A stretch of DNA of 44,101 nt from Kagunavirus BCH953P1 (OZ035805.1); one strand, 5' to 3'. Counted from the first letter of the stretch, positions 4,202 to 38,009 are shown. Notes: generated from the sequence alone by a model not told the origin. Numbers and translations: made by a program.

Positions 4202-4236
4202 TTCTAAATTCCTTATCTCTCGTTTCGATGTAATGA

Positions 4237-4265
4237 ATAGTACCCTATTATATTGGGGTGCGCAA
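4237..4265 (-). promoter_or_regulatory. promoter-like element TTGCGC-17-TACTAT with AATAG-N4-CTATT palindrome
   Basis: part of 32-bp exact repeat (4234-4265 = 13779-13810) placed about 35 bp upstream of minus-strand gene start at 4201. Confidence 0.45.
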
Positions 4266-4540
4266 ACTGTTTATTCACCTATTTCAGTTATTCCACTTGA
4301 TTGTAAATGTCGGAATAAACTATTCGAATAGTTGACTTTTCACTGAAAATATGATAAGCTCCACCTGAGCTTGTGAAGTATGAACAAGCGACCGCGGCGC
4401 GGGCAGGTAACGGAGCTGGACGTAAGTCCTGAGTGTAGTTACGCTGACGCGTTCGGAAGGGTCATACTATATTGCTTGTGTAAAAAGTAACTGGTTTACT
4501 GAGATTACGCCGTTTCTATGTTTAAATGATAAGGACTAGC

Positions 4541-4568
4541 GCCCCGCTTTACGGCGGGGCTTTACTTA
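4541..4568 (+). terminator. rho-independent terminator
   Basis: stem GCCCCGC / GCGGGGC, 6-nt loop, then TTTACTT; lies just upstream of the spanin RBS. Confidence 0.55.
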
Positions 4569-4584
4569 TCGAGAAAGGAGAAAC

Positions 4585-4971
4585 ATGAATCTTAAAGCAA
4601 CTGTCGTAGCAGGAGCATGTTTCATCGTCCTGGCTTACGCACACGGCATCTACCAGTATCGCAGCGGCTGGAACGAAGGCCGGGCGAATCTCGTTTCGCA
4701 GCAACAGCAGAAGGCGCAGGCTGAGTTAGCGAAGAAAACACAACGGCAGCAGCAGGACGAATCAAAGGCTGCCGCTGCTGACAACGAAGGCAAGACGAAA
4801 TCAGAGGTGATTACCCGTGAAGTCGTTAAGTACATTAAAACGCCTGGCCGCAGCGTGTGCACTTTTGACCCTGAGCGCGTGCAGCTCAAGTCCCGCGCCG
4901 TCGCAAACGCAAATTCCATCCCCGGATACGACGATGATGCAGCCACCGTGCAAACTGGCACCGCCAAGTAG
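4585..4971 (+). CDS. i-spanin (Rz-like)
   Basis: 128 aa; N-terminal TM segment (VVAGACFIVLAYAHGI) then Q/A/K-rich helical region; o-spanin gene begins inside its 3' end in another frame. Confidence 0.8.
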   Translation: MNLKATVVAGACFIVLAYAHGIYQYRSGWNEGRANLVSQQQQKAQAELAKKTQRQQQDESKAAAADNEGKTKSEVITREVVKYIKTPGRSVCTFDPERVQLKSRAVANANSIPGYDDDAATVQTGTAK

Positions 4972-5080
4972 CGACGCTGACGAGGATTTGGCTATCGACG
5001 TTCAGAATGCCGAATGTGTACGGCAATTGAGACTGAAAGTGTTCATGTTGCAGGATTACGTGAGGAATATTCTGGAATAG
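4817..5080 (+). CDS. o-spanin (Rz1-like outer membrane lipoprotein)
   Basis: 87 aa; lipoprotein signal with lipobox LSAC; proline-rich mature part; overlaps i-spanin out of frame. Confidence 0.8.
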   Translation: MKSLSTLKRLAAACALLTLSACSSSPAPSQTQIPSPDTTMMQPPCKLAPPSSDADEDLAIDVQNAECVRQLRLKVFMLQDYVRNILE

Positions 5081-5162
5081 TTGCCTTGCATGTTGGAATA
5101 ATTTATTCTTGACATGTAAATCCGGGTGGCCCGGATTCCAACGTCCAGGGGACATACTGACT

Positions 5163-5864
5163 ATGAATCGTTTTTTACGTTATCCGTTCCAGGAAGAAGC
5201 TGGAGCAGAAGATAAATCTGGCGGCGGTGACGCGCCGAAAATGTTCACCGCTGAAGAAGTTCAGGCGCTGATTGAGAAAGAAGTCGCCGGACTTAAGGCC
5301 AATCAGGAAGCGTTGCTGGCGGAGAAGAAAGAAGCCGCCCGTAAAGCAAAAGAGGCCGAAGAAGAACGGCAGCGCGCACACCAGGAGGCGTTAAAAGCCG
5401 CTGGTAAAATGGACGAGTTCGAAAAGACTATTCGTAGCCAGTATGACCCGGTGTTAGCTGAGAAAGATGGTCGCATCTCCAGAATGGCAGAGCGCATCCT
5501 CGGCAGCGAACGTAAAGCAGTGTTAGGCTCTTTCGCAGGTGACTTCATCACCCCGGAAGCAGTGGACATTCTTGCGCCGTTCGTTAAAACTGAGTTTGAA
5601 GGCGATGATGTGGTTACTAAGTTTGTTGGCGCAGACGGTAATGTAATCACGACTGACCCTGAACAGTTCCGCAAATACCTGCGCGAACATAAAGCGTTTT
5701 CGCATTTGATTAAAGCAAATGCAGCTTCCGGCGGCGGGGCTTCCGGTAGCAAAGGCGGCGGGGCCGCACCAGCGTTTAAAGACATGAGTGAAGCGGAGCG
5801 TTTAGCTCTGTATAAATCGAACCCTGCCGAATTTGAACGGCAACTTAAAGCCCTGAGGAAATAA
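5163..5864 (+). CDS. head scaffolding protein (putative)
   Basis: A/E/K-rich helical protein directly upstream of the major capsid gene; first ATG of the ORF (the longer ORF starts with TTG at 5109). Confidence 0.55.
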   Translation: MNRFLRYPFQEEAGAEDKSGGGDAPKMFTAEEVQALIEKEVAGLKANQEALLAEKKEAARKAKEAEEERQRAHQEALKAAGKMDEFEKTIRSQYDPVLAEKDGRISRMAERILGSERKAVLGSFAGDFITPEAVDILAPFVKTEFEGDDVVTKFVGADGNVITTDPEQFRKYLREHKAFSHLIKANAASGGGASGSKGGGAAPAFKDMSEAERLALYKSNPAEFERQLKALRK

Positions 5865-5866
5865 TA

Positions 5867-6916
5867 ATGGCAATTACCACTATCGGCGATATCGTAACTG
5901 GCAACATCCCGGTCCTGGCGTCTTATATGACCGAGGACCCGGTAGAAAAAACCGCGTTCTTCCAGTCCGGTATTCTGACCCCGACTCCGTACGCCGCTGA
6001 GATTGCCCGCGGCCCGTCAAACATCGCTAATATTCCTTTCTGGAAAGCGATTGATACGTCTATCGAACCTAACTACTCGAACGACGTATACCAGGACATC
6101 GCAACCCCTCGTAACGTGCAGACCGGTGAGATGATGGCGCGCGTAGCGTACCTGAACGAAGGTTTCGGCCAGGCGGACCTGACCGCTGAACTGACCAGTC
6201 AGAATCCGCTGCAATCTGTGGCTTCTCGCCTGGATAACTTCTGGCAGCGTCAGGCACAACGCCGTCTGATTGCCACCGCGCTCGGTCTGTACAACGACAA
6301 CGTAGCCGCTACCGATGAATACCATACGCGGAACGATATGGTTATCGACGTGTCTGATTCTCTGGGCTTCGACGCTGGCGCATTCATCGACGCTACCCAG
6401 ACTATGGGCGATGCGCTGATGGGCAACGGCGGTGAAGTGCTGGGCGCTATCGCGATGCACAGCTTCGTTTATGCGCAGGCGCGTAAGCAGCAACTTATCG
6501 ACTTCATCAAAGACGCCGACAACGACACCTTGTTCGCCACCTACCAGGGCTACCGTGTGATTGTTGATGACAGCATGACTGTGGTCGGAACTGACCTGAG
6601 CCGTAAGTTCATCTCCATCATCTTCGGCAACGGAGCTATCGGTTACGGTGAAGGCAATCCGTCTAACCCGCTGGAATACGAACGCGAAGCGTCTCGTGGT
6701 AACGGCGGCGGCGTCGAAACCCTGTGGACCCGTAAGACCTGGCTGCTGCATCCATTCGGCTACAGCTTCACCAGTGCAGTAATCACCGGCAACGGCACCG
6801 AGACGGTCGCACGCTCCGCTTCCTGGCAGGACCTGGCGAACGCCTCTAACTGGAACCGCGTTGTTGAGCGTAAGCACGTACCGATTGCCTTCCTGGTAAC
6901 TGGTGTAGGAGCTTAA
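5867..6916 (+). CDS. major capsid protein
   Basis: 349 aa; GAGGAA SD; follows scaffold-like gene; strong terminator immediately downstream. Confidence 0.8.
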   Translation: MAITTIGDIVTGNIPVLASYMTEDPVEKTAFFQSGILTPTPYAAEIARGPSNIANIPFWKAIDTSIEPNYSNDVYQDIATPRNVQTGEMMARVAYLNEGFGQADLTAELTSQNPLQSVASRLDNFWQRQAQRRLIATALGLYNDNVAATDEYHTRNDMVIDVSDSLGFDAGAFIDATQTMGDALMGNGGEVLGAIAMHSFVYAQARKQQLIDFIKDADNDTLFATYQGYRVIVDDSMTVVGTDLSRKFISIIFGNGAIGYGEGNPSNPLEYEREASRGNGGGVETLWTRKTWLLHPFGYSFTSAVITGNGTETVARSASWQDLANASNWNRVVERKHVPIAFLVTGVGA

Positions 6917-6931
6917 GGTTAAGATATAATC

Positions 6932-6960
6932 GAGAGGGACTTCGGTCCCTCTTTTCATTT
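6932..6960 (+). terminator. rho-independent terminator
   Basis: stem AGAGGGAC / GTCCCTCT with TTCG loop followed by TTTCATTT. Confidence 0.7.
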
Positions 6961-6975
6961 ACTAAGAGGTAAACT

Positions 6976-7275
6976 ATGGCTAAGACCGGAAAAGGCTTAC
7001 CGCGCAGCCTTCATAATACCGACTTCAGCGACCTGGATATCCCAGTCACGCCAGCTACTACCAGCGTAGTTGGAGGGGTTAAAAAGTCAGCTACTGTGGC
7101 TGCACCCGCGGCCATTACCGCCGCCGCCGGGGCGCAGTCCGCTGCGGATCCGACTAAAGCCGAGTTCGATGCGCTTGTAGCGGAGTACAACAAACTTCTA
7201 ACTGATGTTACCGCGCTGCGCACTACCGTAGCAAATCTGTTGACTGCGCTTAAAAACGCAGGAACTGTAAGCTAA
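6976..7275 (+). CDS. hypothetical structural protein (Ala-rich)
   Basis: 99 aa ORF in head gene block; good spacing to neighbours. Confidence 0.5.
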   Translation: MAKTGKGLPRSLHNTDFSDLDIPVTPATTSVVGGVKKSATVAAPAAITAAAGAQSAADPTKAEFDALVAEYNKLLTDVTALRTTVANLLTALKNAGTVS

Positions 7276-7287
7276 AGGAGCTTAAAA

Positions 7288-7641
7288 ATGGTTGATGTAA
7301 TCAAACGTCGCGTTACTGGCGTCTCTGACGACTCCCCGGCCGATGGTCAGGTAGAAATCGATATGGCAAATATCTCGCCAGCATCTTTTTCTACCCCACT
7401 CAATGCTACCACCACTGTTAGTGCACCCGCCGCATTGACGCTTACCGTTGAGGCAACTGGCGGGATGGCACCTTATTCCTACCAGTGGTTCAAGGATAAC
7501 AACGCCATTGCAGGCGCTACCTCAGCTACGTACACCAAAGCCACCACTGTCGCGTCTGTCGATTCAGGCACGTATAAAGTGGTTGTTCACGATGTGTATG
7601 GTAATATTATCTCCAGTAGCACTGTAGCAACTGTATCTTAA
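7288..7641 (+). CDS. Ig-like domain protein (possible head decoration)
   Basis: 117 aa; Ig-like signature YSYQWFKDN...DSGTYKVVVHDVYGN. Confidence 0.65.
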   Translation: MVDVIKRRVTGVSDDSPADGQVEIDMANISPASFSTPLNATTTVSAPAALTLTVEATGGMAPYSYQWFKDNNAIAGATSATYTKATTVASVDSGTYKVVVHDVYGNIISSSTVATVS

Positions 7642-7677
7642 TACAACGGCCCTTCGGGGCCGTAATAAGGAAAGGTC

Positions 7678-7857
7678 ATGGCAGATAATTATGTAATCCG
7701 CGAAAAGTACACCCACGTTGATATTGTTGACGGTCAGGTGATGCCTGTTCGCGGTGTGGTAGAGGCGGATGAACTGGTCGCTACTCAACCGGACAACGAA
7801 GAAGCGCACAACAACGGCGGTGGTACTAAGCGGCGCCGCCGTAAGTCAGAGGAATAA
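7678..7857 (+). CDS. hypothetical small protein
   Basis: 59 aa ORF (below the 60-aa track cutoff); AAGGAAAGG SD; fills the gap between flanking genes. Confidence 0.4.
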   Translation: MADNYVIREKYTHVDIVDGQVMPVRGVVEADELVATQPDNEEAHNNGGGTKRRRRKSEE

Positions 7858-7860
7858 TTT

Positions 7861-8373
7861 ATGCCGCTAATCGTGGAAGATGGGTCGATAGTACCTAACG
7901 CTGACAGTTACGTTAGTCTGGCTGACGCCCGCGCGTTAGCGGCTAAATACGGCCTTGAGCTGCCGGCGGATGATACCGCCGCCGAAGTTGCCTTACGTAA
8001 CGGTGCTACTTATGTCGGGCTTGCAGAACCGCAGATGTGCGGTCGTCGTGTATCCGCCGAACAGTCCCTTGCATACCCTCGCACTGGCGTAACGTTAAAC
8101 GGGTTCCCTGTAGCGAACAATGTCATTCCGAAACAGGTAATTCTTGCGCAGGTAATCGCTGCCGCTACATATGGTACGGGTGCAGAAGTGCGGGCCAACT
8201 CGGACGGTCGTTCCGTGCAGACTGAGCGTGTCGAGGGTGCAGTGACCGTTACGTACTTCAACAACGGCAACAGTGGCGCTACAACCGCGATTACCGCGGC
8301 GGACGACGCCCTACGCCCGTTACTGTGTGGTGGTCTTAACAATGGCTTCTCGTTTAACGTGTACCGGGGTTAA
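7861..8373 (+). CDS. head-tail connector / adaptor protein (putative)
   Basis: 170 aa; position after capsid genes; N-terminal ADSYVSLADARA pattern resembles gp6-like connector proteins. Confidence 0.5.
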   Translation: MPLIVEDGSIVPNADSYVSLADARALAAKYGLELPADDTAAEVALRNGATYVGLAEPQMCGRRVSAEQSLAYPRTGVTLNGFPVANNVIPKQVILAQVIAAATYGTGAEVRANSDGRSVQTERVEGAVTVTYFNNGNSGATTAITAADDALRPLLCGGLNNGFSFNVYRG

Positions 8374-8375
8374 AA

Positions 8376-8990
8376 ATGGCTAAGACTAAAACAGAGATGT
8401 TTACCCTTATCGGTGCGAATCTTCCGGATAACACCGCCGGAGCTATTACACCTGCGAAGCTACGCGAAGTAATGACCCAGATGGCGGATTCGCCTATTTA
8501 CGCCACTCCCGGTGTTAAAGAGGTTGAAGTTCTCCGCGCTGCGTCGACAGTAACACAAGCGCCTACCGCAGTAGATACAGCATTGCAGGTATCGTTCGGC
8601 TCTGCTCAGGGAAGCGCATCTGACCCGGTAATGATTAATGCTGCAGGGCTTGTTACGTTCAACACCGCAGGTAACTATGCTGTTCGCATCAAGTTACAGG
8701 CTGGGCGCACAGGGGCCAGCGGCACATCCATCCTTTTATCGCGCATTCTTCTGAACGGTTCTCAGTACGGGTCACCCGCAGCTACTAAACTGGTAAGCGC
8801 CGATATTACAATCCCGATTGAGTCTCGCGTAGTTATTAACCCGACCGCAGGCCAGACGTTTGCCGTTCAGATTATGCGGGATAGCGCCGGGAGTGACTTT
8901 GGCGGCGTATATCCGCAAGCGGCTACTGTAACTGCATGGGGTACAGCGCCTTCTGCGCTACTGGTTATCTCGAGACTGGAGGCCGCGTAA
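8376..8990 (+). CDS. hypothetical structural protein
   Basis: 204 aa ORF tightly packed in structural operon. Confidence 0.5.
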   Translation: MAKTKTEMFTLIGANLPDNTAGAITPAKLREVMTQMADSPIYATPGVKEVEVLRAASTVTQAPTAVDTALQVSFGSAQGSASDPVMINAAGLVTFNTAGNYAVRIKLQAGRTGASGTSILLSRILLNGSQYGSPAATKLVSADITIPIESRVVINPTAGQTFAVQIMRDSAGSDFGGVYPQAATVTAWGTAPSALLVISRLEAA

Positions 8991-9349
8991 TGGGTACAGC
9001 TTTCAGCAAACGTATGCAAGGCGTGGGCACGCGCCTGCTAACCAAATTTGGTAGCACGGTATCTCTGATTCGCGCCGGCTCGAAAGTATGGGATGAAGTT
9101 CTCGGCGAGTACGTCTGGTCCGCGGATGAAGTGTTGCCGTTGAAGGCCGTTCCGGTTCCGGTAAACGCGGGACTGGTAAACGGTACGACGATTCAGGCTG
9201 GTGACATGATTGTTAAAGCCAATCACAGCGTCGTTCCGAAGATGGAAGACAAGGTGCAATTCGGAGGCGAGCAATGGTCTGTCGTAGCCATCGAGAAGAA
9301 GATGGTTAACGATGATGTCGTGGCATACTTTATCCAGGTGAGAAAATGA
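8990..9349 (+). CDS. head-tail joining protein (putative)
   Basis: 119 aa; ATG overlaps upstream stop; GGAGG SD 8 nt upstream. Confidence 0.5.
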   Translation: MGTAFSKRMQGVGTRLLTKFGSTVSLIRAGSKVWDEVLGEYVWSADEVLPLKAVPVPVNAGLVNGTTIQAGDMIVKANHSVVPKMEDKVQFGGEQWSVVAIEKKMVNDDVVAYFIQVRK

Positions 9350-11327: not shown

Positions 11328-11353
11328 AAGGCCCCTTTCGGGGCCTTTTTCTT
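11328..11353. terminator. terminator between convergent genes
   Basis: stem AAGGCCCC / GGGGCCTT with TTTC loop, T-run on plus side; separates plus major tail gene and minus kinase gene. Confidence 0.65.
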
Positions 11354-11906
11354 ACAAACCTAATTTTAAAGCAATGTCTATAACGTTGGATTTAACGTCA
11401 CCCGGTATGATGTAGGTGTCGTAATCTTCTACACCATCAACGCCGTACAGATAACCGCGGCTGTCCCCCTCAAACGTATAGCCTTCTCGGTGCAAGCGAA
11501 CGATTCTTACATCATGACCCGCGGTGACGATAGGGGTTACTTCGCTGGAGAACCCGCCATCAGACACCACAAAAACTTCGTCGCCGTCGGGCAAGTTTCC
11601 GGCAAGATACTTACCGAAATAATCATCACCGAATACCGGTTTAATGAATTGCTCCGAAATGGCAATCATGAACTGACGACGGGACAACCCATTAAGAAAA
11701 CCCTCTGGCTTTTCTTTCCGCGCCCGGTCGTCGTAGCCGTCGAGAAATTCGTGGTAAGCATCCGGGCCTAACGCTGCCAGAGCAATATTGAACATTGGAT
11801 TCTTGAAACTGGTAGTTCCTTTTGCAAAGCCCATTTCTACCAGCGCCATAGCAAGCGTGTCTTTCCCGCAACCCGCAGGGCCATTAAGAATAATTACCTT
11901 AGCCAT
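11352..11906 (-). CDS. dNMP kinase-like P-loop kinase
   Basis: 184 aa; P-loop GPAGCGKDT (GKDT variant as in T4 gp1-type dNMP kinases). Confidence 0.6.
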   Translation of the reverse strand: MAKVIILNGPAGCGKDTLAMALVEMGFAKGTTSFKNPMFNIALAALGPDAYHEFLDGYDDRARKEKPEGFLNGLSRRQFMIAISEQFIKPVFGDDYFGKYLAGNLPDGDEVFVVSDGGFSSEVTPIVTAGHDVRIVRLHREGYTFEGDSRGYLYGVDGVEDYDTYIIPGDVKSNVIDIALKLGL

Positions 11907-12394
11907 TATTTATCGCTCCCGTGTGATTTTAAGTATGTAGAGTTCCCGTTACAGTCATATTCAGTGACCGCGTGTGTCGTGATTCCTAAGCCGCGGAAAT
12001 GCTTTATTACCGCTGGAGAGTCGTCGAATGCGCACAAGATTCTCTCCAGCCCAATAGCACGCAACACCTCTTCTTTAATTACGATGTCTTTTCTGTTGTC
12101 GTGTTTGCTGCGCATTAACAGAACGTCGAACTTGACATTGTTTTTACGTAACCACTCGCGAGTTTCTTCCTCGGCGTCGTCGCTTCGCCCGGTAAGGATG
12201 ATTACGGTCATCCCGGTATGCCACAACGTGTTGCACAAGTGAATGTTGTCATATATCGGCGAATCATCTTTGCAGGCCATGTTAAAAGGCTTCCACGCCC
12301 AGGTTTCGCCGTAGTTATCTTTTGGCAGCAGGTGTAAGCGATGAGTTCCGTCGGCTAATGTTCCATCTAAATCGAAAATCACAATATCTTTCAT
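11906..12394 (-). CDS. HAD-family phosphatase (5'-deoxynucleotidase-like)
   Basis: 162 aa; N-terminal FDLDGTLAD motif (DxDGT nucleophile motif of the HAD superfamily). Confidence 0.65.
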   Translation of the reverse strand: MKDIVIFDLDGTLADGTHRLHLLPKDNYGETWAWKPFNMACKDDSPIYDNIHLCNTLWHTGMTVIILTGRSDDAEEETREWLRKNNVKFDVLLMRSKHDNRKDIVIKEEVLRAIGLERILCAFDDSPAVIKHFRGLGITTHAVTEYDCNGNSTYLKSHGSDK

Positions 12395-13521
12395 CCCAGC
12401 ATCTCCGGTGAAATAGTTAAACGTGCGACCTCGCCATATTCGGCGCTATAAGTAATTACATTTGCACTACGGCCTGACATCCATCCGCCGCGAGAGGCGT
12501 ATGCGTCTTTAGCCGCTAAGGTGCGGTGTTGCTCAACAATCATGTTACGGCTTTCTACAATCTTTTGATGGTGCAGGTGGCCTACGTGGGCGTAGCTGTA
12601 AACACTCTCGCCGAATGCTTTGCGGAACTTGGCAATCATAACCGGTTCGATAGCGTCGAAGCGTGCTTTATGTCCGTGATGGAAGAACAGCGTAGTTTTG
12701 CCGTGTTGTACCATCTTGTAAACATCCGGCGACGTATCGACAACCACTCGGCTGTCGTTCGAATATAAAACTGTGAACATTTCTGCCAGCCACACGGACC
12801 CTACAGGGTCGTGATTTCCTTGCACGATAAGCAAGCGAACGGTTTTATGTTTAACCAGCGCCATATCAACAACACGGCGCACCATACGAATCATGTAGCG
12901 GACAAGTTTCTGGTAGCGAGTGTCCGCGTCCAACACATGACGTGACTCAGGAGTAACGGCATCCAGACTATCGAAGTGCGCGAAGTCGCCTAGCAGGTTA
13001 ATAACTCCCGTTCCTGCATCCGGTGCTTTCTGAAACGCCGCATCGAACCAACGGGAGAACAGGTCTTCCGCAATTTTCATGTCCCAGTCGTCGCCACTCT
13101 CGTCGGCCCATGCCAGCATACCGAGATGGAAATCAGATACCGTGTAAAGATTGAGTAGCTTGTCGTCGCGTTTAGCGTGAACGGCTTTAACAGGTGCAAC
13201 GGGTGTAATCTCTGACTTCATGCCTTCAATTACGGCTTTCATCAACTCTATCTGACGTTCGGCGTCAGTATCGGTCTTAACCCATTGCAACTTAGTGTTG
13301 CCGAACTCGTCCACAAGTGACGACGTGCCTTTAATTTTGTAGCCGTCCGGGACAAGGTGGCTAACGTCGCGCCCGTGGCCTACGCCTTTCTTAGCCAGCT
13401 TCGCTTTACGGATGCGAATAACGCGGTCTGAGATGCCATATTTACGGGCTATATCGATAGTTTTAACTCCGGCGTTCAATTCTTCCTGTAACTGCTCGTC
13501 GGTTATTTTCTTCCGGGCCAT
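12391..13521 (-). CDS. metallophosphoesterase with N-terminal HTH domain
   Basis: 376 aa; calcineurin-like motifs DFH, GDFAH, GNHD, FHHGH, GHLHH; N-terminal HTH-like segment. Confidence 0.7.
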   Translation of the reverse strand: MARKKITDEQLQEELNAGVKTIDIARKYGISDRVIRIRKAKLAKKGVGHGRDVSHLVPDGYKIKGTSSLVDEFGNTKLQWVKTDTDAERQIELMKAVIEGMKSEITPVAPVKAVHAKRDDKLLNLYTVSDFHLGMLAWADESGDDWDMKIAEDLFSRWFDAAFQKAPDAGTGVINLLGDFAHFDSLDAVTPESRHVLDADTRYQKLVRYMIRMVRRVVDMALVKHKTVRLLIVQGNHDPVGSVWLAEMFTVLYSNDSRVVVDTSPDVYKMVQHGKTTLFFHHGHKARFDAIEPVMIAKFRKAFGESVYSYAHVGHLHHQKIVESRNMIVEQHRTLAAKDAYASRGGWMSGRSANVITYSAEYGEVARLTISPEMLG

Positions 13522-13559
13522 GCTTACTTCCTCGTGTTTAGGATTTGTCCTATGCTAGC

Positions 13560-13751
13560 TCACTTCTCGTTAACATTCGAGTTGCACGCCCAGATTAAAA
13601 TAAATACCCACGGCAGCAGAATCCAACCAAGAAACAGGTTGGCCATGAATATCGCTAACTTCGCTTTATGGTTACGGAAGTACGCAACCAGGAAAGGTGC
13701 GAAATAAGCGAGAAGTGCAAACAGAATTAAGGAAACCGGTAAACTTGACAT
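13560..13751 (-). CDS. small membrane protein
   Basis: 63 aa, two hydrophobic segments; ATG at 13751 preceded by AAGGGG SD (the track start at 13766 lacks an SD). Confidence 0.5.
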   Translation of the reverse strand: MSSLPVSLILFALLAYFAPFLVAYFRNHKAKLAIFMANLFLGWILLPWVFILIWACNSNVNEK

Positions 13752-13781
13752 TTTAAACCCCTTCATTGTTGGTGTAAGTGA

Positions 13782-13810
13782 ATAGTACCCTATTATATTG
13801 GGGTGCGCAA
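13782..13810 (-). promoter_or_regulatory. promoter-like element TTGCGC-17-TACTAT with AATAG-N4-CTATT palindrome
   Basis: second copy of the 32-bp exact repeat, upstream of the antisense four-gene operon. Confidence 0.45.
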
Positions 13811-13918
13811 GTAATGTGATAGAATAATTTTGCGCCTAGTGTCGCACACGAAAAGCGGGTGGTTCCCGTCTGGCGCATTTACCCTTAACCTGTAACCTCT
13901 TAACCAAAGGATTAAAGA

Positions 13919-14338
13919 ATGAAACTTTCTGATTTCTATTTCGAAGAGAAAGCACTGGTAGGCAAGAAGATGCCGATTCTGCTACCAAACGGCGAAGACT
14001 CCGGTGAGTGGCTTAATGTTGTAAGTCCGGATGCCGATGTCGCCGTTAAAGCGGGGCGTGCTTTCATTATCGCATACCGTCGCGGGCGGGCGCGTTTCGA
14101 AGAACTGGAAAAAGCTGCCAAAGAATCCGGCGACTATACTGAATATAACCTGGCGATTAATGAGCTAGCGGAAGACCTCAACCGGCAACTCGCGGCGGAA
14201 GTCGTAAACGGCTGGAGCTTCGACGACGAGCCTTTCTCTAAGGAAGCGTTTAACAAATTGCTCGACCAGTTTAAAGGGCTTGGAACCCAGGTAGCAGCGT
14301 TCCATAACGCTGAGCGCAAAGCATTACAGGAAAAGTAG
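13919..14338 (+). CDS. tail assembly chaperone (G-like)
   Basis: 139 aa directly upstream of tape measure gene; downstream ORF overlaps in -1 frame. Confidence 0.7.
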   Translation: MKLSDFYFEEKALVGKKMPILLPNGEDSGEWLNVVSPDADVAVKAGRAFIIAYRRGRARFEELEKAAKESGDYTEYNLAINELAEDLNRQLAAEVVNGWSFDDEPFSKEAFNKLLDQFKGLGTQVAAFHNAERKALQEK

Positions 14339-23363: not shown

Positions 23364-23388
23364 AGGCCCCGAACGGGGCCTTTTCTCT
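23364..23388 (+). terminator. terminator-like hairpin
   Basis: stem AGGCCCC / GGGGCCT with GAAC loop followed by TTTTCTCT. Confidence 0.5.
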
Positions 23389-26334: not shown

Positions 26335-26649
26335 TTATAATTCCTTATATTGTTGGGGTATGTGCTTACTATAATAGTCTGCTATTAGGGTGTCAACCTG
26401 TTTTATAGAGCCAACCACAAAAACATTTGCGCCGCGTTTGCGCATCCGCTCATGTTCTCGTAGCTGGTGCGGGTCTGGCTTCGTGTTTTCGTCTTTCTTA
26501 ACCTCGACAAACCATATGATGCCGCCGGGGAGCATTACCAGCAAGTCGGGGGCGCCGGAGCGCCCCTCGTAGGAAAGTTTACGAACGAGGCCCCCCAGGG
26601 CCTCGAATCGGTCTTTCGCGTATTTCTGTACGCGGCCCTCTTTAGTCAT
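26335..26649 (-). CDS. VRR-NUC domain nuclease
   Basis: 104 aa; GAPDLLV...WFVEVKK motif typical of VRR-NUC. Confidence 0.7.
   Translation of the reverse strand: MTKEGRVQKYAKDRFEALGGLVRKLSYEGRSGAPDLLVMLPGGIIWFVEVKKDENTKPDPHQLREHERMRKRGANVFVVGSIKQVDTLIADYYSKHIPQQYKEL
26366..26394 (-). promoter_or_regulatory. sigma70-type promoter TTGACA-17-TATAGT with AATAG-N4-CTATT palindrome
   Basis: -35 at 26389-26394 and -10 at 26366-26371 on minus strand; palindrome 26371-26384. Confidence 0.6.
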
Positions 26650-29953: not shown

Positions 29954-29982
29954 ACTATAATAGCTAACTATTCAGGTGTCAA
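29954..29982 (-). promoter_or_regulatory. sigma70-type promoter TTGACA-17-TATAGT with AATAG-N4-CTATT palindrome
   Basis: -35 at 29977-29982 and -10 at 29954-29959 on minus strand; palindrome 29959-29972. Confidence 0.6.
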
Positions 29983-31889: not shown

Positions 31890-32158
31890 ACTCTGTTCTC
31901 CCACTGGTCGATTAAATGTCTGGTCCGGTGATGACAATGCATAGCCCAGCCATACATCGACTCGAAGACATAAAAGTCAGGCTTGGCGAATGTCGTGCGC
32001 TTAATCTGCGACAAGTGACGGCCTATATCTTTAGGCCGTGGCACTTTGCCTAAGTACGCCATCTCTTCCATCTGGTGCGCACCGGATGGCGCACGCAATA
32101 GCCATAGCGCCTCTGTGCTATCCCGCCGGTCTACGGCTCGGTAGAGTTGGTAAATCAT
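31886..32158 (-). CDS. hypothetical protein
   Basis: 90 aa; stop overlaps HNH start. Confidence 0.45.
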   Translation of the reverse strand: MIYQLYRAVDRRDSTEALWLLRAPSGAHQMEEMAYLGKVPRPKDIGRHLSQIKRTTFAKPDFYVFESMYGWAMHCHHRTRHLIDQWENRV

Positions 32159-32201
32159 AATTATGACCCCTCAGTTAAAGCGGCCCTAAGGCCGCCGATA
32201 A

Positions 32202-32672: not shown

Positions 32673-32703
32673 TTGTTTCTCTCCTCTCGTTTGGTATGGG
32701 CTA

Positions 32704-32733
32704 ACTATAATAGCGAACTATTCATGTTGTCAA
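32704..32733 (-). promoter_or_regulatory. sigma70-type promoter TTGACA-18-TATAGT with AATAG-N4-CTATT palindrome
   Basis: -35 at 32728-32733 and -10 at 32704-32709 on minus strand; palindrome 32709-32722; divergent from HTH gene. Confidence 0.55.
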
Positions 32734-32797
32734 TGGGCTTTTCTAAAATAATTAATATGGTACTATTCACATATCAACTGACTAAGGAGTAATTGAC

Positions 32798-33013
32798 ATG
32801 CAACCATCTGAACTAGGCATCCGTGTAGAACAACGCCGTAAAGAACTCGGTATCTCCCAGCGCCGTCTGGCTGTTCTGGCTGGCGTTTCACAGGGCGCGA
32901 TTAACCAGCTGGCACTTGGGGTAACTCAGGACGTCCGCCCGGCGACGCTGTTTAAACTGGCGGAAGTGCTGGAAGTAGACGCCAAGTGGCTGGCGTTCGG
33001 TGAAGGGGCTTAA
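32798..33013 (+). CDS. XRE/Cro-type HTH transcriptional regulator
   Basis: 71 aa; HTH GISQRRLAVLAGVSQGAINQL; AAGGAG SD; divergent from early promoter. Confidence 0.75.
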   Translation: MQPSELGIRVEQRRKELGISQRRLAVLAGVSQGAINQLALGVTQDVRPATLFKLAEVLEVDAKWLAFGEGA

Positions 33014-33030
33014 CGCCCCTTTCTTTTTAT
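33003..33030 (+). terminator. rho-independent terminator
   Basis: stem GGGGC / GCCCC with TTAAC loop followed by TTTCTTTTTAT; overlaps stop of HTH gene. Confidence 0.6.
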
Positions 33031-33341
33031 ATCAACTCATCGAGTTCTTCCAAATTCTTAATCGTGTGTTGCACGTTCAGGTACTGAATCCACGCAAGAA
33101 GCCATACGCTTACAGGAAAACTTATTACAATAGCTATCGCGGTAATCAACTTGAAAAGGCACTTTATAATCTCCGCCAGTGTCATATCCAAAATGTCTTT
33201 AAACTCCGCAAAAATACCCGCTGTATACACACAAAAAGTCCACCAGTGGCCGCTTACCGCGGAAACACATGTCAGGTATGACGGGCGGTATCCTGCCCTC
33301 ACTGCTCTAAACGGATTATCTATAAAATCGTAAATATTCAT
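33027..33341 (-). CDS. hypothetical membrane protein
   Basis: 104 aa with hydrophobic segments; ATGA overlap with primase stop. Confidence 0.5.
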   Translation of the reverse strand: MNIYDFIDNPFRAVRAGYRPSYLTCVSAVSGHWWTFCVYTAGIFAEFKDILDMTLAEIIKCLFKLITAIAIVISFPVSVWLLAWIQYLNVQHTIKNLEELDELI

Positions 33342-35578
33342 TCCAAATCCTCTTCTGTCACTATCAGCATCTCATTCGGTTCGTATATTGTCTTTGGCCT
33401 TAATCTGTCGCCCATCTTTTCGGGTATCCGGTAGGTACCGGGGATAACTTCACCGTTAACATCACACCCTAACATCAACTCACCGTCTTTCAGCATCTTC
33501 TCGAGATGGTGGTTGGTGATGGCGTGGTCTCCCGAGTTCGCTACTATCTGCCGTTGGGTAAAACCTCGTCCGGTGTCGTCGGACTGTTGCAGGTCTTCCA
33601 GCGCGGCGAGTATTGATTCCTTACGCCCTTCATCCTTCCCGCGTTTTACAGCATTCTTTACGTTTTCTTTACCTTCTTTCGTCAGCCCTTCTTCCCGCTC
33701 TTTCTCCTCGTCAGTCTTGAACGGCTCGAAACCCCACGGCATCAGCACAAGCGCCTTATGTGGTTCCGGCAGGTCCAGGTTTACGATTGGGCCGTATTCC
33801 TCTGTGCTACCGACGAACTCAACCGCGCGGTATTCTTTCGGCGGCGGTGCTTCACGGAACTGTACCGACTCCAGCACCATGCCAACCGTCTTCTGTTGAG
33901 GCCCGTGCTTAAATTTAGAGTGGTATACGTTTATCTGACGGTCGGTCGCGCGTTCGATTGTCAGTTCCACGTCGACCCCAGCATACAGAGCGCCACTACC
34001 ACGGGCTTTTTTTCCGCCCTTCGGCGTATGGTGAACGACGCCCACCGCGGCTTTAGTCGCATCGCGTACTTTTTTAAGGATAGCGATGACTTTACCCATA
34101 CCGATTGCCGTTGATGAACTGTTCTCGTCGAACTTATCAATCGTCAGGGCCAGCGTCTGGTTGAGGGTGTCGAACGCGACCATGCCAATAGGTTCGTCGC
34201 CGGCAGTTTCGCGCATTAGCTTAATCAGGCTTTTCAGCTTTCCGACTTCGCCCATATCGATGACGTGTACATAATCTTTACCATCTGCGCCGTATTTAGC
34301 CGCGAGTGCATCAATACGTGTGCGTGTGGCCGCCCCGCCCTCGCCATCAATATAGAAATGGTGGCAACGCTGGGTATCTGCCCCTGCAAACCGGTATCCG
34401 GCGGCACTAAGGTACATCATCCCCAGCGTATAAAACGATTTGTACGTGCCAGATTCCCCGACAATATCCCATATACAATCCGACGGCATGTACCCTTCAA
34501 CGACGAAATCAGCCTTTACCGGTTCCGGTAGCTCGTCCTCCTCTGAGTCCTCGCCGTCTTCCAGGTCGTCGAGGCTACACGAAACAGATTCACGCGCGCC
34601 CCATCCGATTGCCTCAGCGACTTCACTGAACGGCAGACCGGTAGCATCGCACGCATACTTCCACACCTCCTTCGGTGACATGCCCTCGGTTGCCGTGATG
34701 TCGGTGTCGTGAATCATGGTTACGTTCGGCGCTTCGTATCCCTCGCGCGGGAAGCATAGCAGGAAGTCGTCCGGGCGCGGCGTCGGGTCGCTGTAGTTTT
34801 CTGCGTGTTCCGGTGTAGCTGGCATCTTCAGGCCGCGCGGCGTCATGATACCGCCGTACTCGAACGCCAGGGCTTCGAACGCATCGGTAAACGCTGTGCG
34901 CAGTTCTTCCGGTATCAGGTAATCTGATGCGCGGCTCACCTCGTAGTCCGGTACGCCTTCCAGTAACTCATCAGGGCCAATCAGGTCGTTGCGGCGCGAC
35001 CAGATAACGGTAGCGCCGACAGGGGGCAAGTACATCGGCTGCGAAAGAGTGAACCCGCTGCGGTCGGCACCCATGCCTTTGAAGAAGTGCTCCAGCAATC
35101 CATGACGAACACGGATGATGTCACCACCTTCTACCGGGCGGCCCAGTGGCATGACGACGCGAAAGCGCGGTGACTCATCGGTATGGGATGCCGTGGTATA
35201 GAGGCACATCGCCCGCCGGCTGCGCTTAACCAGGCGCACCGCTTCCTGGTACTCTTCCGGTGTTGCACTATCAAAGTCCAGGTACGCCAGCGACGATTTG
35301 CGTACAGACGCGTCACAGCGATAGAAAAATCCTTTACGCGCTTGCTTAAAGTCACCGGTTTCCGGGTCTTTTACGGTGCTGTGCGTAGAATCGCACGCGG
35401 CAGTAATATAGCCCGGCGCGGTCTTCGGATTAATCCCGTCACGAACGGCATCGAGCGGCTGGATTAACTCTTTCAGGTCGTCCAGTGTTGCCGTGTGAGT
35501 GGTTCTGACGTTTATATCCTTTTTCTCTGCCCGCGCGTTGCGACGAGACCACGAGTAGGATAAAATTACATCGGACAT
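33338..35578 (-). CDS. primase-polymerase / RecA-like helicase fusion protein
   Basis: 746 aa; N-terminal prim-pol-like region, C-terminal Walker A (GESGTYKS) and RecA-like ATPase core. Confidence 0.75.
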   Translation of the reverse strand: MSDVILSYSWSRRNARAEKKDINVRTTHTATLDDLKELIQPLDAVRDGINPKTAPGYITAACDSTHSTVKDPETGDFKQARKGFFYRCDASVRKSSLAYLDFDSATPEEYQEAVRLVKRSRRAMCLYTTASHTDESPRFRVVMPLGRPVEGGDIIRVRHGLLEHFFKGMGADRSGFTLSQPMYLPPVGATVIWSRRNDLIGPDELLEGVPDYEVSRASDYLIPEELRTAFTDAFEALAFEYGGIMTPRGLKMPATPEHAENYSDPTPRPDDFLLCFPREGYEAPNVTMIHDTDITATEGMSPKEVWKYACDATGLPFSEVAEAIGWGARESVSCSLDDLEDGEDSEEDELPEPVKADFVVEGYMPSDCIWDIVGESGTYKSFYTLGMMYLSAAGYRFAGADTQRCHHFYIDGEGGAATRTRIDALAAKYGADGKDYVHVIDMGEVGKLKSLIKLMRETAGDEPIGMVAFDTLNQTLALTIDKFDENSSSTAIGMGKVIAILKKVRDATKAAVGVVHHTPKGGKKARGSGALYAGVDVELTIERATDRQINVYHSKFKHGPQQKTVGMVLESVQFREAPPPKEYRAVEFVGSTEEYGPIVNLDLPEPHKALVLMPWGFEPFKTDEEKEREEGLTKEGKENVKNAVKRGKDEGRKESILAALEDLQQSDDTGRGFTQRQIVANSGDHAITNHHLEKMLKDGELMLGCDVNGEVIPGTYRIPEKMGDRLRPKTIYEPNEMLIVTEEDLE

Positions 35579-35636
35579 ATTGTATATTCCTTCAGCAAGT
35601 AATTTGGCCTCGGCGCTCTAACGTCGGGGCTTTCTT

Positions 35637-35870
35637 TTATTCCAGGTCTTCTAAAGTAGCGGCCATTCCGCGAACTTCAGCAACAGCACTATATTTCCCA
35701 CCAACATTTTTCACGACACCAGATTTAACCAGCACCTTCAACGACCCTTCAATAATGGCGGAACTATAGTACCTAAAATAACTACGGCGCAAGTCGATAA
35801 CGCTGCACGACCCTTTTTTACGTGTTAACGAAACGACTGCCGTGAATACGCGTGACTGGAACTCGGTCAT
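35637..35870 (-). CDS. hypothetical protein
   Basis: 77 aa; upstream of primase gene in same operon. Confidence 0.5.
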   Translation of the reverse strand: MTEFQSRVFTAVVSLTRKKGSCSVIDLRRSYFRYYSSAIIEGSLKVLVKSGVVKNVGGKYSAVAEVRGMAATLEDLE

Positions 35871-36037
35871 TTCACATTCTCCTTAATCCACGCTTCCACT
35901 TTCTCCGGGTCAAACGTACCCGGCTGACGGCGGCCCATAATGCGGATACAACAATCCGGGAACTTCCCGCTCTTTAGCCAGTTATTCAGTGTGCGACGAG
36001 TAACCCCGATACGCTCTGCAACCTCATTCTGTGTCAT
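35867..36037 (-). CDS. AlpA/excisionase-like HTH regulator
   Basis: 56 aa from first ATG; MTQNEVAERIGVTRRTLNNWLKSGKFP is an AlpA-type HTH; first gene of the leftward operon. Confidence 0.6.
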   Translation of the reverse strand: MTQNEVAERIGVTRRTLNNWLKSGKFPDCCIRIMGRRQPGTFDPEKVEAWIKENVK

Positions 36038-36069
36038 TCTCAAACCCTCAGTATCAGTTAACGAAACCA

Positions 36070-36098
36070 AGTATACATTGCGAATAATGGGAAATCAA
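36070..36098 (-). promoter_or_regulatory. putative promoter TTGATT-17-TATACT
   Basis: -35 at 36093-36098 and -10 at 36070-36075 on minus strand; about 30 nt upstream of the AlpA-like gene. Confidence 0.45.
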
Positions 36099-36375
36099 AC
36101 ATAATCGCACCTATTGACATTATGAAAATCTTCGTTTAAGGTGCTTCTATATCTTAGTTACTTTGATTCCTGTTCACCTTGTAAGAATGTTTAACCCGTG
36201 CGTCAAGCAAAGGGTTAAACACAGGCTTACTGAACACGAGAATTATCATAACTTTCCTTCCTTAGTATCTCCGGTTGCCCTGGGCAAGCTATATTCTCAT
36301 CAACGGCATATCTCTTAAGTATCTGATTTTCTTAATGTGCCGTAGATTCGCAACCGTAAAAATGTAACCCTTACC

Positions 36376-36403
36376 GGGCGGGCTTAAGGCCCGCCCTTTA
36401 GTT
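36376..36403 (+). terminator. terminator-like hairpin
   Basis: stem GGGCGGGC / GCCCGCCC with TTAAG loop followed by TTTAGTT, within a 450-bp intergenic region. Confidence 0.45.
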
Positions 36404-36468
36404 ACAAAGTAATAAGAATAAAGGCACGACCCTGCCTGAAGAATCACAACGGCAACGTAACTATTCTC

Positions 36469-36497
36469 TTGCACACCCCAACATAATAGGATACTAT
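36469..36497 (+). promoter_or_regulatory. promoter-like element TTGCAC-17-TACTAT with AATAG-N4-CTATT palindrome
   Basis: same architecture as repeats at 4237-4265 and 13782-13810; 35 nt upstream of gene start 36532. Confidence 0.5.
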
Positions 36498-36531
36498 TCA
36501 CTTATCGTAACGAGACAGAGGAGTGAGGGTT

Positions 36532-36717
36532 ATGTTTAAGAAGGGTCAGTTGGTGAAGATTTTGGAGACCGGAGAGTTAGCGGTTATCTCATTTATGCAC
36601 CACAGAGAATATGAGGTCTATTTTGCTAAATCTTTAACGGAGTCCTATCTCACCGTGCTATACGCGCAAGATATGAAACTCATCGGCAACAATTTTAAAT
36701 TCAAAGGGGCGAAGTGA
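36532..36717 (+). CDS. hypothetical small protein
   Basis: 61 aa from ATG with AGGAG SD 8 nt upstream (track ORF starts with GTG at 36523). Confidence 0.5.
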   Translation: MFKKGQLVKILETGELAVISFMHHREYEVYFAKSLTESYLTVLYAQDMKLIGNNFKFKGAK

Positions 36718-36917
36718 TGGAAGAATTATTTGAGGAACTGAAACATCATGAGTTCGAGGAGATATATTTTGTAGCTGGACGCTACGAGGCGCATTTAGTG
36801 GACGGGATTACACTTATTACGGTGGATAGCCTGCAAATGTTAAATAGCTTACGTGCGCTACGAACGGCATCGAATCATGATGCTCGTGCCGACGACTCTG
36901 AGGGAGGTTGCCGTTGA
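36717..36917 (+). CDS. hypothetical protein
   Basis: 66 aa; overlapping start and stop with neighbours. Confidence 0.45.
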   Translation: MEELFEELKHHEFEEIYFVAGRYEAHLVDGITLITVDSLQMLNSLRALRTASNHDARADDSEGGCR

Positions 36918-37174
36918 TGAATAATACTGAACTGAAAACAGTAGCGGAATATAACCGTAAAATACGGGTCATGCGTCGTGGTGCGGGGCTGGAGCAGTTC
37001 TATAACATGTGGCGCATTGCGACGCGCGACCCTGAGTTTCTTCAGACAGGTTATTATTCCATTAAAGGCATTATCCCGATTCGTGCACGTAAGGATTATG
37101 GTTGGGTTCGTGAGACCCCTAATCTTTTGTGGTGCTGGTATTGTGGTGAATTCTGGGTAAGGGTTAAGGACTGA
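36917..37174 (+). CDS. hypothetical protein
   Basis: 85 aa; GGGAGG SD; ATGA overlap with upstream gene. Confidence 0.5.
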   Translation: MNNTELKTVAEYNRKIRVMRRGAGLEQFYNMWRIATRDPEFLQTGYYSIKGIIPIRARKDYGWVRETPNLLWCWYCGEFWVRVKD

Positions 37175-37245
37175 GTTATGAATAATTACCCGTTTATTTT
37201 AATCGTCAGCGTCGTTTATGTGGCGCACGTGTTGTGGGGTTTGGT

Positions 37246-37446
37246 ATGAGCAAGTGGATTAAGTGTAGTGAGCGGATGCCGCGCTGCGAGCCGGGTAGGT
37301 GGTCAAAAGATGTTATTGCACTAAGTGATACTGGGGAGGTGTTTCGTCTGGCCTGTCAAGGTGAATACTGGCAAAGAACGTCAGCGTTCGTTGAATCAGG
37401 TTCAGAAAAAGTGGTTGCATGGATGCCGTTCCCTGATGAGGACTAA
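37246..37446 (+). CDS. DUF551-like protein
   Basis: 66 aa; WIKCSERMP...WMPFPD motif shared with ORF at 37597. Confidence 0.55.
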   Translation: MSKWIKCSERMPRCEPGRWSKDVIALSDTGEVFRLACQGEYWQRTSAFVESGSEKVVAWMPFPDED

Positions 37447-37449
37447 GTT

Positions 37450-37593
37450 ATGAGAGAAGCATTTGAACGGTGGGCCGTCATCGAGGGTCTGCCGGTCAAC
37501 AAGGGTTCAAAGAAAGAGTACCTGAACGTTAAGACCCGTCTCGCGTGGCGGGCGTGGAGAGCTGGTGTGCAAGCGGTTATGGACCGGGGGTGA
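37450..37593 (+). CDS. hypothetical small protein
   Basis: 47 aa ORF filling the gap between the two DUF551-like genes. Confidence 0.35.
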   Translation: MREAFERWAVIEGLPVNKGSKKEYLNVKTRLAWRAWRAGVQAVMDRG

Positions 37594-37596
37594 GAT

Positions 37597-37782
37597 ATGG
37601 GCGAGTGGATTAGGTGTAGTGAACGGATGCCGGAGCCTTATGAATACGTTCTTGTAACTGATTGTTTTGTTGGCTGTGAGGTTATGCGTGTTAATTCAGA
37701 TGGCTACTGGGGGCCCGCAAAGAGTTTATATCACGGTGATATCACCCACTGGATGCCATTACCGGAGCCGCCAGAAGCGTGA
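37597..37782 (+). CDS. DUF551-like protein (paralog)
   Basis: 61 aa; WIRCSERMP...WMPLPEPPE motif. Confidence 0.55.
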   Translation: MGEWIRCSERMPEPYEYVLVTDCFVGCEVMRVNSDGYWGPAKSLYHGDITHWMPLPEPPEA

Positions 37783-37949
37783 TGTTATATTGTAACAATA
37801 GCTTGGGATTTTACTGAGTGACTTACGCTGCTGTGCAGCAGCGTACAACTTTAACTTAGTGTCGTCAAAAGGTGACACTTTTCACCAAACGCAACAATCG
37901 AGGCGACTATTGCAGGAGATGCAACAATACAAACACCAATAAAATTTAC

Positions 37950-37978
37950 TTGCACACTGAGATAGAATAGGCTACTGT
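37950..37978 (+). promoter_or_regulatory. promoter-like element TTGCAC-17-TACTGT with AATAG-N4-CTGTT palindrome
   Basis: same architecture as 36469-36497 with one mismatch in the palindrome; upstream of ORF 38010. Confidence 0.45.
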
Positions 37979-38009
37979 TCATTTACACAAACGAGAGGAG
38001 AGATAGAAG

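Follow-up and report, generated by a model that had tools for sequence, protein, structure and literature searches.

A putative second family of sigma-70 promoters in Kagunavirus BCH953P1, with a conserved candidate operator and variable downstream gene cassettes

Background

The 44,101-nucleotide stretch of DNA from Kagunavirus BCH953P1 (OZ035805.1), referred to throughout as the window, is a near-complete Kagunavirus genome of the subfamily Guernseyvirinae, derived from a virulent phage of Escherichia coli and collinear with the K1G-type phages. Its sequence is 99.8-100% identical to the BCH953P1 record OZ035754.1. Members of this subfamily, from the genera Kagunavirus and Jerseyvirus, are widely used in therapy and biocontrol. 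The terminase, portal, head and tail genes occupy the plus strand to about 23 kb, the replication genes run on the minus strand from about 36 kb down to 23.5 kb, and from 36.5 kb the plus strand carries small genes, the holins and endolysin, and further small genes. The structural region is broken by two minus-strand blocks, at 3980-4201 and 11352-13751. The phage also codes for a Gp2.5-like annealing protein and a Cas4-like exonuclease. The subject of this study is a promoter-like element, TTGCRC-N17-TACTRT, which overlaps the palindromic dyad AATAG-N4-CTATT. A first-pass annotation of the window had proposed that it defines a second promoter family, which shares its palindrome with stronger promoters and heads promoter-gene cassettes.

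Results and discussion

The second promoter family

The family includes an exact 32-bp repeat, TGAATAGTACCCTATTATATTGGGGTGCGCAA, which is found on the plus strand at 4234-4265 and 13779-13810, as the first-pass annotation had claimed. All the positions that it gave for the repeat, promoters and dyads were recovered; a correction applies to the superinfection-immunity gene, the start of which is the second ATG at 13751 (63 amino acids, as in K1G) and not 13766. A further copy of the 32-mer, with 3 mismatches, lies on the opposite strand at 36469-36500, and 100 shuffles produced 0 matches. The pattern TTGCRC-N17-TACTRT itself occurs without mismatch at 4 sites, against 0.03 expected from shuffles:

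4234-4265, minus strand: second-family promoter 1; -35 TTGCGC at 4265-4260, 17-nt spacer, -10 TACTAT at 4242-4237
4236-4249, minus strand: dyad of second-family promoter 1, AATAG-N4-CTATT
13779-13810, minus strand: second-family promoter 2; -35 TTGCGC at 13810-13805, -10 TACTAT at 13787-13782, dyad at 13781-13794
36469-36500, plus strand: second-family promoter 3; -35 TTGCAC at 36469-36474, -10 TACTAT at 36492-36497, dyad at 36485-36498
36532-36717, plus strand: first gene after second-family promoter 3
37950-37981, plus strand: second-family promoter 4; -35 TTGCAC at 37950-37955, -10 TACTGT at 37973-37978, one-mismatch dyad at 37966-37979
38010-38159, plus strand: first gene after second-family promoter 4 (DUF7170)

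Each of the four sites is followed after 25-35 nt, on the correct strand, by a ribosome-binding site and ATG. Their -10 hexamers (TACTAT in three, TACTGT in one) conform to the sigma-70 pattern TAnnnT, the spacer is exactly 17 nt and the TTG is invariant; a Hamming search that fixed only the TTG recovered TACTAT at all the orthologous sites found in eight relatives. The Jerseyvirus versions have TTGCGT or TTGACG as the -35 at the same distance, with TTG(C/A) placed 10-11 nt from the dyad. This constant separation of 17 nt between TTG and TACTAT in both genera favours the hexamers originally picked out. The supported interpretation is that the four sites would represent a second promoter class sharing the dyad of the strong TTGACA class, and the proposal of such a family is borne out by its geometry, its position relative to ribosome-binding site and ATG, and an island of conservation in Guernseyvirinae records, described below.

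Several observations weigh against this interpretation. The -35 TTGCRC matches 3 of 6 consensus positions and falls under the scan threshold, and this is why a simple consensus scan misses the second-family sites. A second -10-like hexamer (TATAAT, CATAAT or TAGAAT) is present 7 nt after TTGCRC, and at site 2 the scan prefers ATCACA-17-TATAAT, which has no counterpart at the other sites; these two features render the exact start point uncertain. The literature yielded no transcriptome, 5'-end or binding data for any Guernseyvirinae phage, MB78 included.

Other readings of the same sequence were tried and set aside. If the alternative -10 were the true one, it would have no conserved -35 at 16-18 nt except the ATCACA of site 2, and we retain it as a caveat. 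An antisense promoter built from the element's TATTAT/TATATT hexamers is unlikely, as its -35 would land in the variable leader. Inspection by eye of CCCCAAYAT as a sigma-32 signal and of TTGC as a T4 MotA box brought out no consistent partner hexamer in either case, and site 4 is without the CCCC.

The first-pass annotation had further suggested that the weak hexamers betray dependence on an activator or an alternative sigma factor. This suggestion found no support: the TTG, the TAnnnT and the 17-nt spacer are all kept, and the dyad, at about -19 to -6, occupies a position typical of repression. So placed, it would be unfit for activation, and a 17-nt spacer should need no MerR-type remodelling. 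There is no sigma or RNA polymerase gene among the annotations of K1G, Bas70, fBC-Eco01, EM1 and fFiEco03. A/T-rich DNA further upstream probably compensates for the weak -35, and, judging from the sequence, the second family may be read more simply as a set of moderate constitutive promoters. The block at 36.5 kb, which had been regarded as late, stands at the divergent control region and contains small accessory genes, a setting that fits early expression at least as well as late.

A dyad common to two promoter classes

Perfect copies of AATAG-N4-CTATT number 6 in the window, against 0.05 expected from shuffles, and copies with at most one mismatch number 11, against 1.28. The proposal that the palindrome marks at least eight promoter regions stands; they comprise three first-family promoters, the four second-family promoters and one that precedes the gene for an XRE-type protein discussed below. 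The three first-family promoters, with 11/12 consensus matches, are at the head of the scan list:

32704-32733, minus strand: TTGACA-18-TATAGT, perfect dyad at 32709-32722 in the spacer; divergent from the XRE promoter
29954-29982, minus strand: TTGACA-17-TATAGT, dyad at 29959-29972
26368-26396, minus strand: TTGACA-17-TATAGT, dyad at 26373-26386

In this family 4-5 nt separate the -35 from the dyad, whose final base is the first of the -10 TATAGT, and the dyad spans about -25 to -12. In the second family it follows 10 nt after the -35, and its right arm contains the -10 (TA-CTAT). The Jerseyvirus immunity operon displays a third dyad offset, of 7 nt.

These offsets bear on an earlier explanation of the motif. 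The report on fBC-Eco01 (PMC9825357) listed seven PHIRE 'phage promoters' with the consensus tgAATAGTa-ccTATTat-T and ascribed them to a phage RNA polymerase, and that on vB_EcoS-Golestan (PMC7203180) listed seven PHIRE 'phage promoters' with the same motif; the sites in the two phages fall at the same seven orthologous places. On this account the elements would be promoters of a phage-specific transcription system and the palindrome its recognition sequence, and the account draws strength from the motif being the dominant repeated regulatory element in both genomes, at 7 sites each, and from its specificity to Guernseyvirinae-type phages. Against it, neither a polymerase nor a sigma gene is annotated in the phages named above, and each open reading frame (ORF) of at least about 350 amino acids in the window matches by position a function-annotated gene of K1G or Bas70, with functions that include packaging, structural, tape-measure, tail and replication roles. 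Moreover, since the motif is found at three offsets from good -35 and -10 hexamers, with its orientation reversed between the two classes, it behaves as an operator and not as a polymerase recognition site. We therefore reject the attribution to a phage RNA polymerase, which strikes us as very improbable.

Several properties of the dyad argue that it acts as DNA. Its RNA hairpin amounts to -2.3 kcal/mol and the 40-nt element has a z of -0.03 against shuffles, values that rule out an RNA structure or terminator, and an Rfam search of the window returned no match. Across the two genera the arms are invariant and the central 4 nt free, with W-K-AATAG as the extended half-site, and copies with one mismatch have no compensating change. 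Taken together, the invariant arms, free centre, uncompensated mismatches and negligible hairpin point to a protein site on DNA in preference to an RNA structure.

It is also conceivable that the promoters are real and the dyad has no dedicated binder, being a by-product of A/T-rich -10-like hexamers on both strands and of promoter copying. Consistent with this, in the second family the right arm forms part of the -10, the dyad is flanked by TATAAT-like hexamers, the promoter copies have clearly spread by recombination, and the AATAG half-site is as a 5-mer not enriched on its own (82 against 83 expected). However, the same dyad is perfect in the first-family spacer, where only its last base touches the -10, and the two classes share no other sequence; the pattern of invariant arms around a free centre extends across both genera, and the promoter of the XRE regulator itself bears a copy. 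For these reasons we hold a dyad without a binder to be improbable.

Beyond these regions, palindrome-like sequences with one mismatch lie over the -35 of two other promoters:

4327-4360, plus strand: AATAGTTGACTTTT, over the -35 of TTGACT-N14-TGaTAAGCT (extended -10; TTGACT at 4332)
40957-40990, plus strand: ACTAGTTGACTATT, over the -35 of TTGACT-17-TATATT (TTGACT at 40962)

The former precedes the spanin, scaffold and capsid genes and the latter directly follows the endolysin terminator; both are kept in both genera. At 4309-4331, directly 5' of the TTGACT promoter at 4332, AACTATTCGAATAG presents the dyad arms in swapped order (CTATT-CG-AATAG) and is kept in all relatives examined. Another one-mismatch dyad, TATAGTATGCTATT at 2790-2803, closely follows the portal terminator and shares bases with the start codon (ATG) of the head-morphogenesis ORF. 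Bas70 and S100 retain this dyad, and for Golestan it figures among the PHIRE promoters; no convincing -35/-10 goes with it. In relatives, this gap between the portal and head-morphogenesis genes houses a further second-family cargo module.

Distribution and conservation

The 32-mer was found in 209 phage records, all of them Guernseyvirinae (98 Salmonella and 97 Escherichia phages, 10 Kagunavirus entries, and Raoultella, Klebsiella and Shigella phages), at 1-3 places in each; its presence in related genomes dispels the earlier worry that the repeat might be an assembly artefact. The degenerate pattern was recovered from 103 IMG/VR stretches, and among the matches listed all were on Guernseyvirinae-type contigs (about 24-45 kb) or short fragments. 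A comparison of the element's region with 5,426 E. coli genomes gave no match, which speaks against a host origin.

For each site we aligned the orthologous sequences of at most eight genomes, anchored on the element, and computed mean pairwise identity. Identity is 0.8-1.0 from about -30 to about +50 of the element and collapses some 30-50 nt 3' of the 32-nt element. At sites 3 and 4 the element forms an island of about 90% identity and both flanks drop to 0.25-0.35, the random level, while the site after the Hoc-like gene and the immunity site are variable on the downstream side only. A promoter-sized island within unrelated DNA, as at sites 3 and 4, constitutes strong evidence of selection on the element.

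A separate conserved segment adjoins second-family promoter 2. Between it and the tail-assembly-chaperone gene, at 13811-13918, about 70 nt are 95-100% conserved in seven Kagunavirus genomes; they include a possible stem, TGCGCC...GGCGCA (13830-13876), with no Rfam match, and could serve as a plus-strand promoter or leader for the tail genes.

Candidate dyad-binding proteins

Two small predicted DNA-binding proteins of the window come into consideration as binders of the dyad:

32798-33013, plus strand: XRE/HTH_3 protein of 71 amino acids, candidate binder (PF01381, E 2.3e-12)
32754-32767, plus strand: putative degenerate operator AATATGGTACTATT in the XRE promoter; -10 TACTAT at 32761-32766, poor -35 CTTTTC
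35867-36037, minus strand: HTH_17 excisionase-like small protein (coordinates from the MTQNE start)

The best solved relative of the XRE protein is phage 434 Cro (71 amino acids), with an E of 5.4e-7 over residues 6-68, followed by the 434 repressor and P22 C2, and its nearest NCBIfam family is DicA. The 434 operators are likewise 14-bp dyads. The degenerate dyad copy that had been noted before the XRE gene lies 31 nt before the ATG. We surveyed 45 distinct XRE upstream regions, of which the Kagunavirus-type ones uniformly (35/35) have a perfect first-family operator at -88/-89 and the degenerate one at -44, while those of Jerseyvirus type (10/10) have the distal one-mismatch dyad only and a promoter of their own, TTGCGT-17-TACTAT. 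Read as operators, these sites form a classic autoregulatory layout. All the relatives of the XRE protein in IMG/VR are from Guernseyvirinae.

Several facts count against the XRE protein. Its recognition helix reads SQSLITHL in Jerseyvirus versus SQGAINQL here, with the core half-site identical. The HTH_17 protein, for its part, is encoded by 9/9 palindrome-bearing genomes, and one may envisage that this excisionase/AlpA-like protein binds the dyad, either as a repressor or as a modifier of RNA polymerase loaded at the promoter, for example for read-through of the many intrinsic terminators that the long operons contain. It is conserved between the genera at 82%, versus 52% for the XRE protein, and its gene, close to the left-hand boundary of the divergent control region (36.1-36.5 kb), is plausibly one of those transcribed earliest in the leftward direction. 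AlpA and certain other HTH_17 proteins are loaded onto RNA polymerase at sites embedded in promoters, a parallel by analogy only. As outgroups we used the incomplete loci (28.6 and 35.4 kb) of the Cornellvirus-type phages VSiP and GRNsp27, both of which are without the AATAG-N4-CTATT dyad. They retain an XRE orthologue that is 41-43% identical and has a changed recognition helix, and an HTH_17 homologue was not found in their sampled parts; on its face, this pattern would fit HTH_17 at least as well as XRE. No replacement dyad for a covariation test emerged in these outgroups, and hence the phyletic pattern cannot separate the two candidates. Within the VSiP locus, at 394-413, the immunity-operon promoter TTGCAC-17-TATATT is accompanied by a dyad ACTAAT-N10-ATTAGT, a single instance.

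On the other side, a search for solved relatives of the HTH_17 protein gave nothing significant (best E 0.45), excisionase folds of this short, monomer-like kind generally recognise direct repeats and not 14-bp dyads, no copy of the operator accompanies a recognisable promoter of the gene itself, and the loci from which the protein seems to be missing are the incomplete ones. Binding of the dyad by HTH_17 thus appears unlikely to us. The XRE protein is favoured because of its family, the dimeric dyad binding expected of it and the operators at its own gene, and we infer it to be the best candidate.

Cassettes and cargo modules

The gene that follows the element differs widely among nine complete genomes. 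We extended this comparison to a census of these genomes and IMG/VR loci, in which 125 unique sites carried 35 unrelated families of first genes. The site that follows the Hoc-like gene accounted for 12 families, the one behind the portal gene (empty in the window) for 9, site 4 for at least 12, site 3 for 2 and the immunity site for 3. Five of the families are represented at two sites each, namely phrog_7673, a clamp-like 173-amino-acid protein, a Dam methylase and two ORFans. Alignment with related phages, which the first-pass annotation had recommended, establishes that the element does flank variable cargo.

The two antisense blocks of the window are composed as follows:

3980-4201, minus strand: module 1 cargo gene, 73 amino acids, phrog_7673
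4202-4233, minus strand: module 1 leader TTACATCGAAACGAGAGATAAGG with the ribosome-binding site AAGGAA
3954-3976, no strand assigned: distal GC-rich hairpin of module 1, a good terminator on the plus strand with a poor T-run on the minus strand, which is the module's own
11352-13751, minus strand: module 2, four antisense genes
13560-13751, minus strand: superinfection immunity (PF14373)
12391-13521, minus strand: metallophosphoesterase/exonuclease
11906-12394, minus strand: PNKP-type phosphatase
11352-11906, minus strand: dNMP-kinase-like gene
11328-11347, no strand assigned: bidirectional terminator hairpin AAGGCCCCTTTCGGGGCCTT, which closes module 2

Module 1 provides an instance of relocation. 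Its 73-amino-acid protein, for which a Pfam search gave no match, is 74% identical to Bas70_0057, the gene for which stands behind the second-family promoter located at 36.6 kb of the Bas70 genome. The whole unit of promoter, leader and gene (window 3977-4265) is 78.6% identical to Bas70 36593-36877, where it stands just after the site-3 promoter on the other strand, and the similarity ends at the stop codon. The Bas70 gene is inserted within the leader, directly after the ACGAGA box. K1G is without module 1 at this position, and backbone homology to three relatives restarts at 4234, the first base of the repeat. Two leader types are common to unrelated ORFs, up to the ATG. The hairpins at 3954-3976 and 11328-11347 are related in sequence, and a further copy is found at 23364. 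This direct comparison of cargo across sites and relatives supports the idea of promoter-gene cassettes put forward in the first-pass annotation, through the diversity of families, the families seen at two sites and the relocation relative to Bas70.

Further observations concern the surroundings of these units. The Hoc-like head-decoration gene (K1G gp05, 153 amino acids) is almost wholly deleted in the window at 3873-3960: K1G 3884-4253 has no counterpart, a 9-codon remnant, ATGGGCTTTTTCAAAGTAACTGATTCCTAA, persists, and the flanks overlap by about 10 bp. The conserved leader box AAACGAGAGGAG (ACGAGA plus Shine-Dalgarno) closely precedes several start codons, at 32681-32691 (minus strand), 37990-38000 and 38421-38431 (both plus strand), with weaker copies at 4208-4220 (minus) and 36510-36522 (plus); as an 11-mer with 2 mismatches allowed it is not enriched in the window (7 against 10 expected). 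Given the Bas70 insertion directly behind such a box, it might mark a place of crossover or serve as a signal for translation. In Bas70 (13888-14271) and at nine IMG/VR sites, the superinfection-immunity gene is replaced, behind the same promoter, by one for a 108-amino-acid protein with an apparently hydrophobic, signal-peptide-like N-terminus (MRKLVLALGFMSFATFGAP...), which may have an alternative exclusion function. Strong GC-rich hairpins at 36376-36396, about 70 nt 5' of second-family promoter 3, and at 33002-33022, directly after the XRE gene, probably insulate their units from neighbouring transcription.

A proposed mechanism

We consider it probable, on balance, that the element combines three roles, namely those of a sigma-70 promoter, of the 14-bp operator of an XRE-like repressor and of a portable cassette head. 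The four second-family elements would act as moderate-strength promoters for the host sigma-70 polymerase, and the XRE promoter could be a fifth member with a decayed -35. The conserved unit of about 60 bases may be taken to consist of some 20-30 nt 5' of the -35, the promoter, a short leader and, next to the start codon, the ribosome-binding site. The dyad would most likely be the operator of a dimeric phage repressor, present in weakened form at the XRE promoter. Because it overlaps the spacer and the -10, a bound dimer should exclude RNA polymerase; binding would block the polymerase at all the dyad promoters and could bring about a coordinated shut-down of replication and accessory genes, together with autoregulation of the repressor.

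The second-family unit would at the same time be a portable expression head for accessory genes that differ among relatives, with its 50-70 bp or so of shared sequence acting as a homology patch at which cargo could be swapped or transferred from one site to another. Recombination over homology as short as 50-70 bp is plausible with an annealing protein and an exonuclease, and the phage's own proteins of these kinds would probably carry out the exchange. Under this portable-head reading, both antisense blocks that interrupt the structural genes count as moron-like modules. A bolder version, which appears rather unlikely to us, is a gene-capture platform, in which the exonuclease and annealase would excise single ORFs, precisely from leader to stop, and re-insert them at any of 4-5 docking sites. 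These sites, along with all the remaining promoters of the phage, would be under one dyad binder. Such a platform would resemble PeSL mini-circles or a recombinase-free integron, and HTH_17, if it is the binder, might modify RNA polymerase after being loaded at promoters, in place of acting as a plain repressor.

Relation to prior reports and significance

As the motif was listed in two genome papers, the repeated motif itself is not new. Those PHIRE listings give 20-mers only; they neither separate the two classes nor name an operator or binder nor note cassette behaviour, and the fBC-Eco01 listing invokes a phage RNA polymerase for which no gene is annotated in that phage. What is new here is the division into two putative sigma-70 classes, the interpretation of the dyad as an operator for which a 434-Cro-like protein is the candidate binder, the proposed correction of the polymerase claim, and the view of the second-family unit as a possible mobile expression head, closest to PeSL cassettes and morons. 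The element is a real, conserved and functionally coherent regulatory element that refines known biology and overturns nothing.

These results yield a testable regulatory map of about ten promoters in three geometries, with one 14-bp operator and two candidate regulators. They bring out the entry and exit points of accessory genes, including those for superinfection immunity, Dam methylase, clamp-like proteins and many ORFans, and thereby help to predict variable cargo that is possibly relevant to host range or anti-defence. The conserved promoter-leader also offers a natural landing pad for engineered payloads.

Comparison with known systems

Three known systems invite comparison. The likeness to 434 Cro lies in a 71-amino-acid single-domain HTH_3 protein (with the E-value given above), in 14-bp dyads that have conserved outer bases and a free centre and overlap core promoters, and in a regulator gene placed within a divergent, operator-bearing promoter pair. 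It differs in that no CI-length repressor or integrase is annotated in relatives and no OR1-3 array is present here: the operators are single, save for the divergent pair 45 bp apart at 32709/32754, unlike those of a CI bistable switch, and they are distributed over at least 8-10 promoters of a virulent genome. The half-site is AATAG here versus ACAA and the helix SQGAINQL versus QQSIQLIE, with binding in the present case being a prediction.

Morons, as defined by Hendrix and colleagues, are insertions of a promoter, a gene and a terminator that separate otherwise neighbouring conserved genes in lambdoid and other tailed phages. The modules described here resemble them as autonomous units between structural genes (antisense in this case) with their own promoter and distal hairpin, polymorphic among relatives in both presence and content. 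They differ in that all of them share one promoter-operator-leader tied to the regulatory dyad of the phage, in belonging to a virulent phage, which precludes expression from a repressed prophage, and, for module 1, in a distal hairpin without a good T-run on the module's strand.

The promoter-early stem-loop (PeSL) cassettes of T4-type phages (Arbiol et al. 2010, PMC2839356; Comeau et al. 2014, PMC4122927) offer a further parallel. The differences are that the present inverted repeat, short and A/T-rich, keeps its sequence and is too weak to act as a terminator, that the second-family -35 is weak, and that a 44-kb siphovirus has about 4-5 copies versus about 50 in T4-type phages; a strong separate hairpin is present only before site 3. 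Since a stable internal stem-loop is missing, the unit works like a PeSL cassette and is not a strict member of the class. In common with PeSL cassettes it has a repeated sigma-70-type promoter with A/T-rich upstream DNA and an inverted repeat between or over the -35 and -10, followed at its 3' end by a ribosome-binding site and start codon before variable ORFans, and its occurrences coincide with insertions, deletions and replacements between close relatives.

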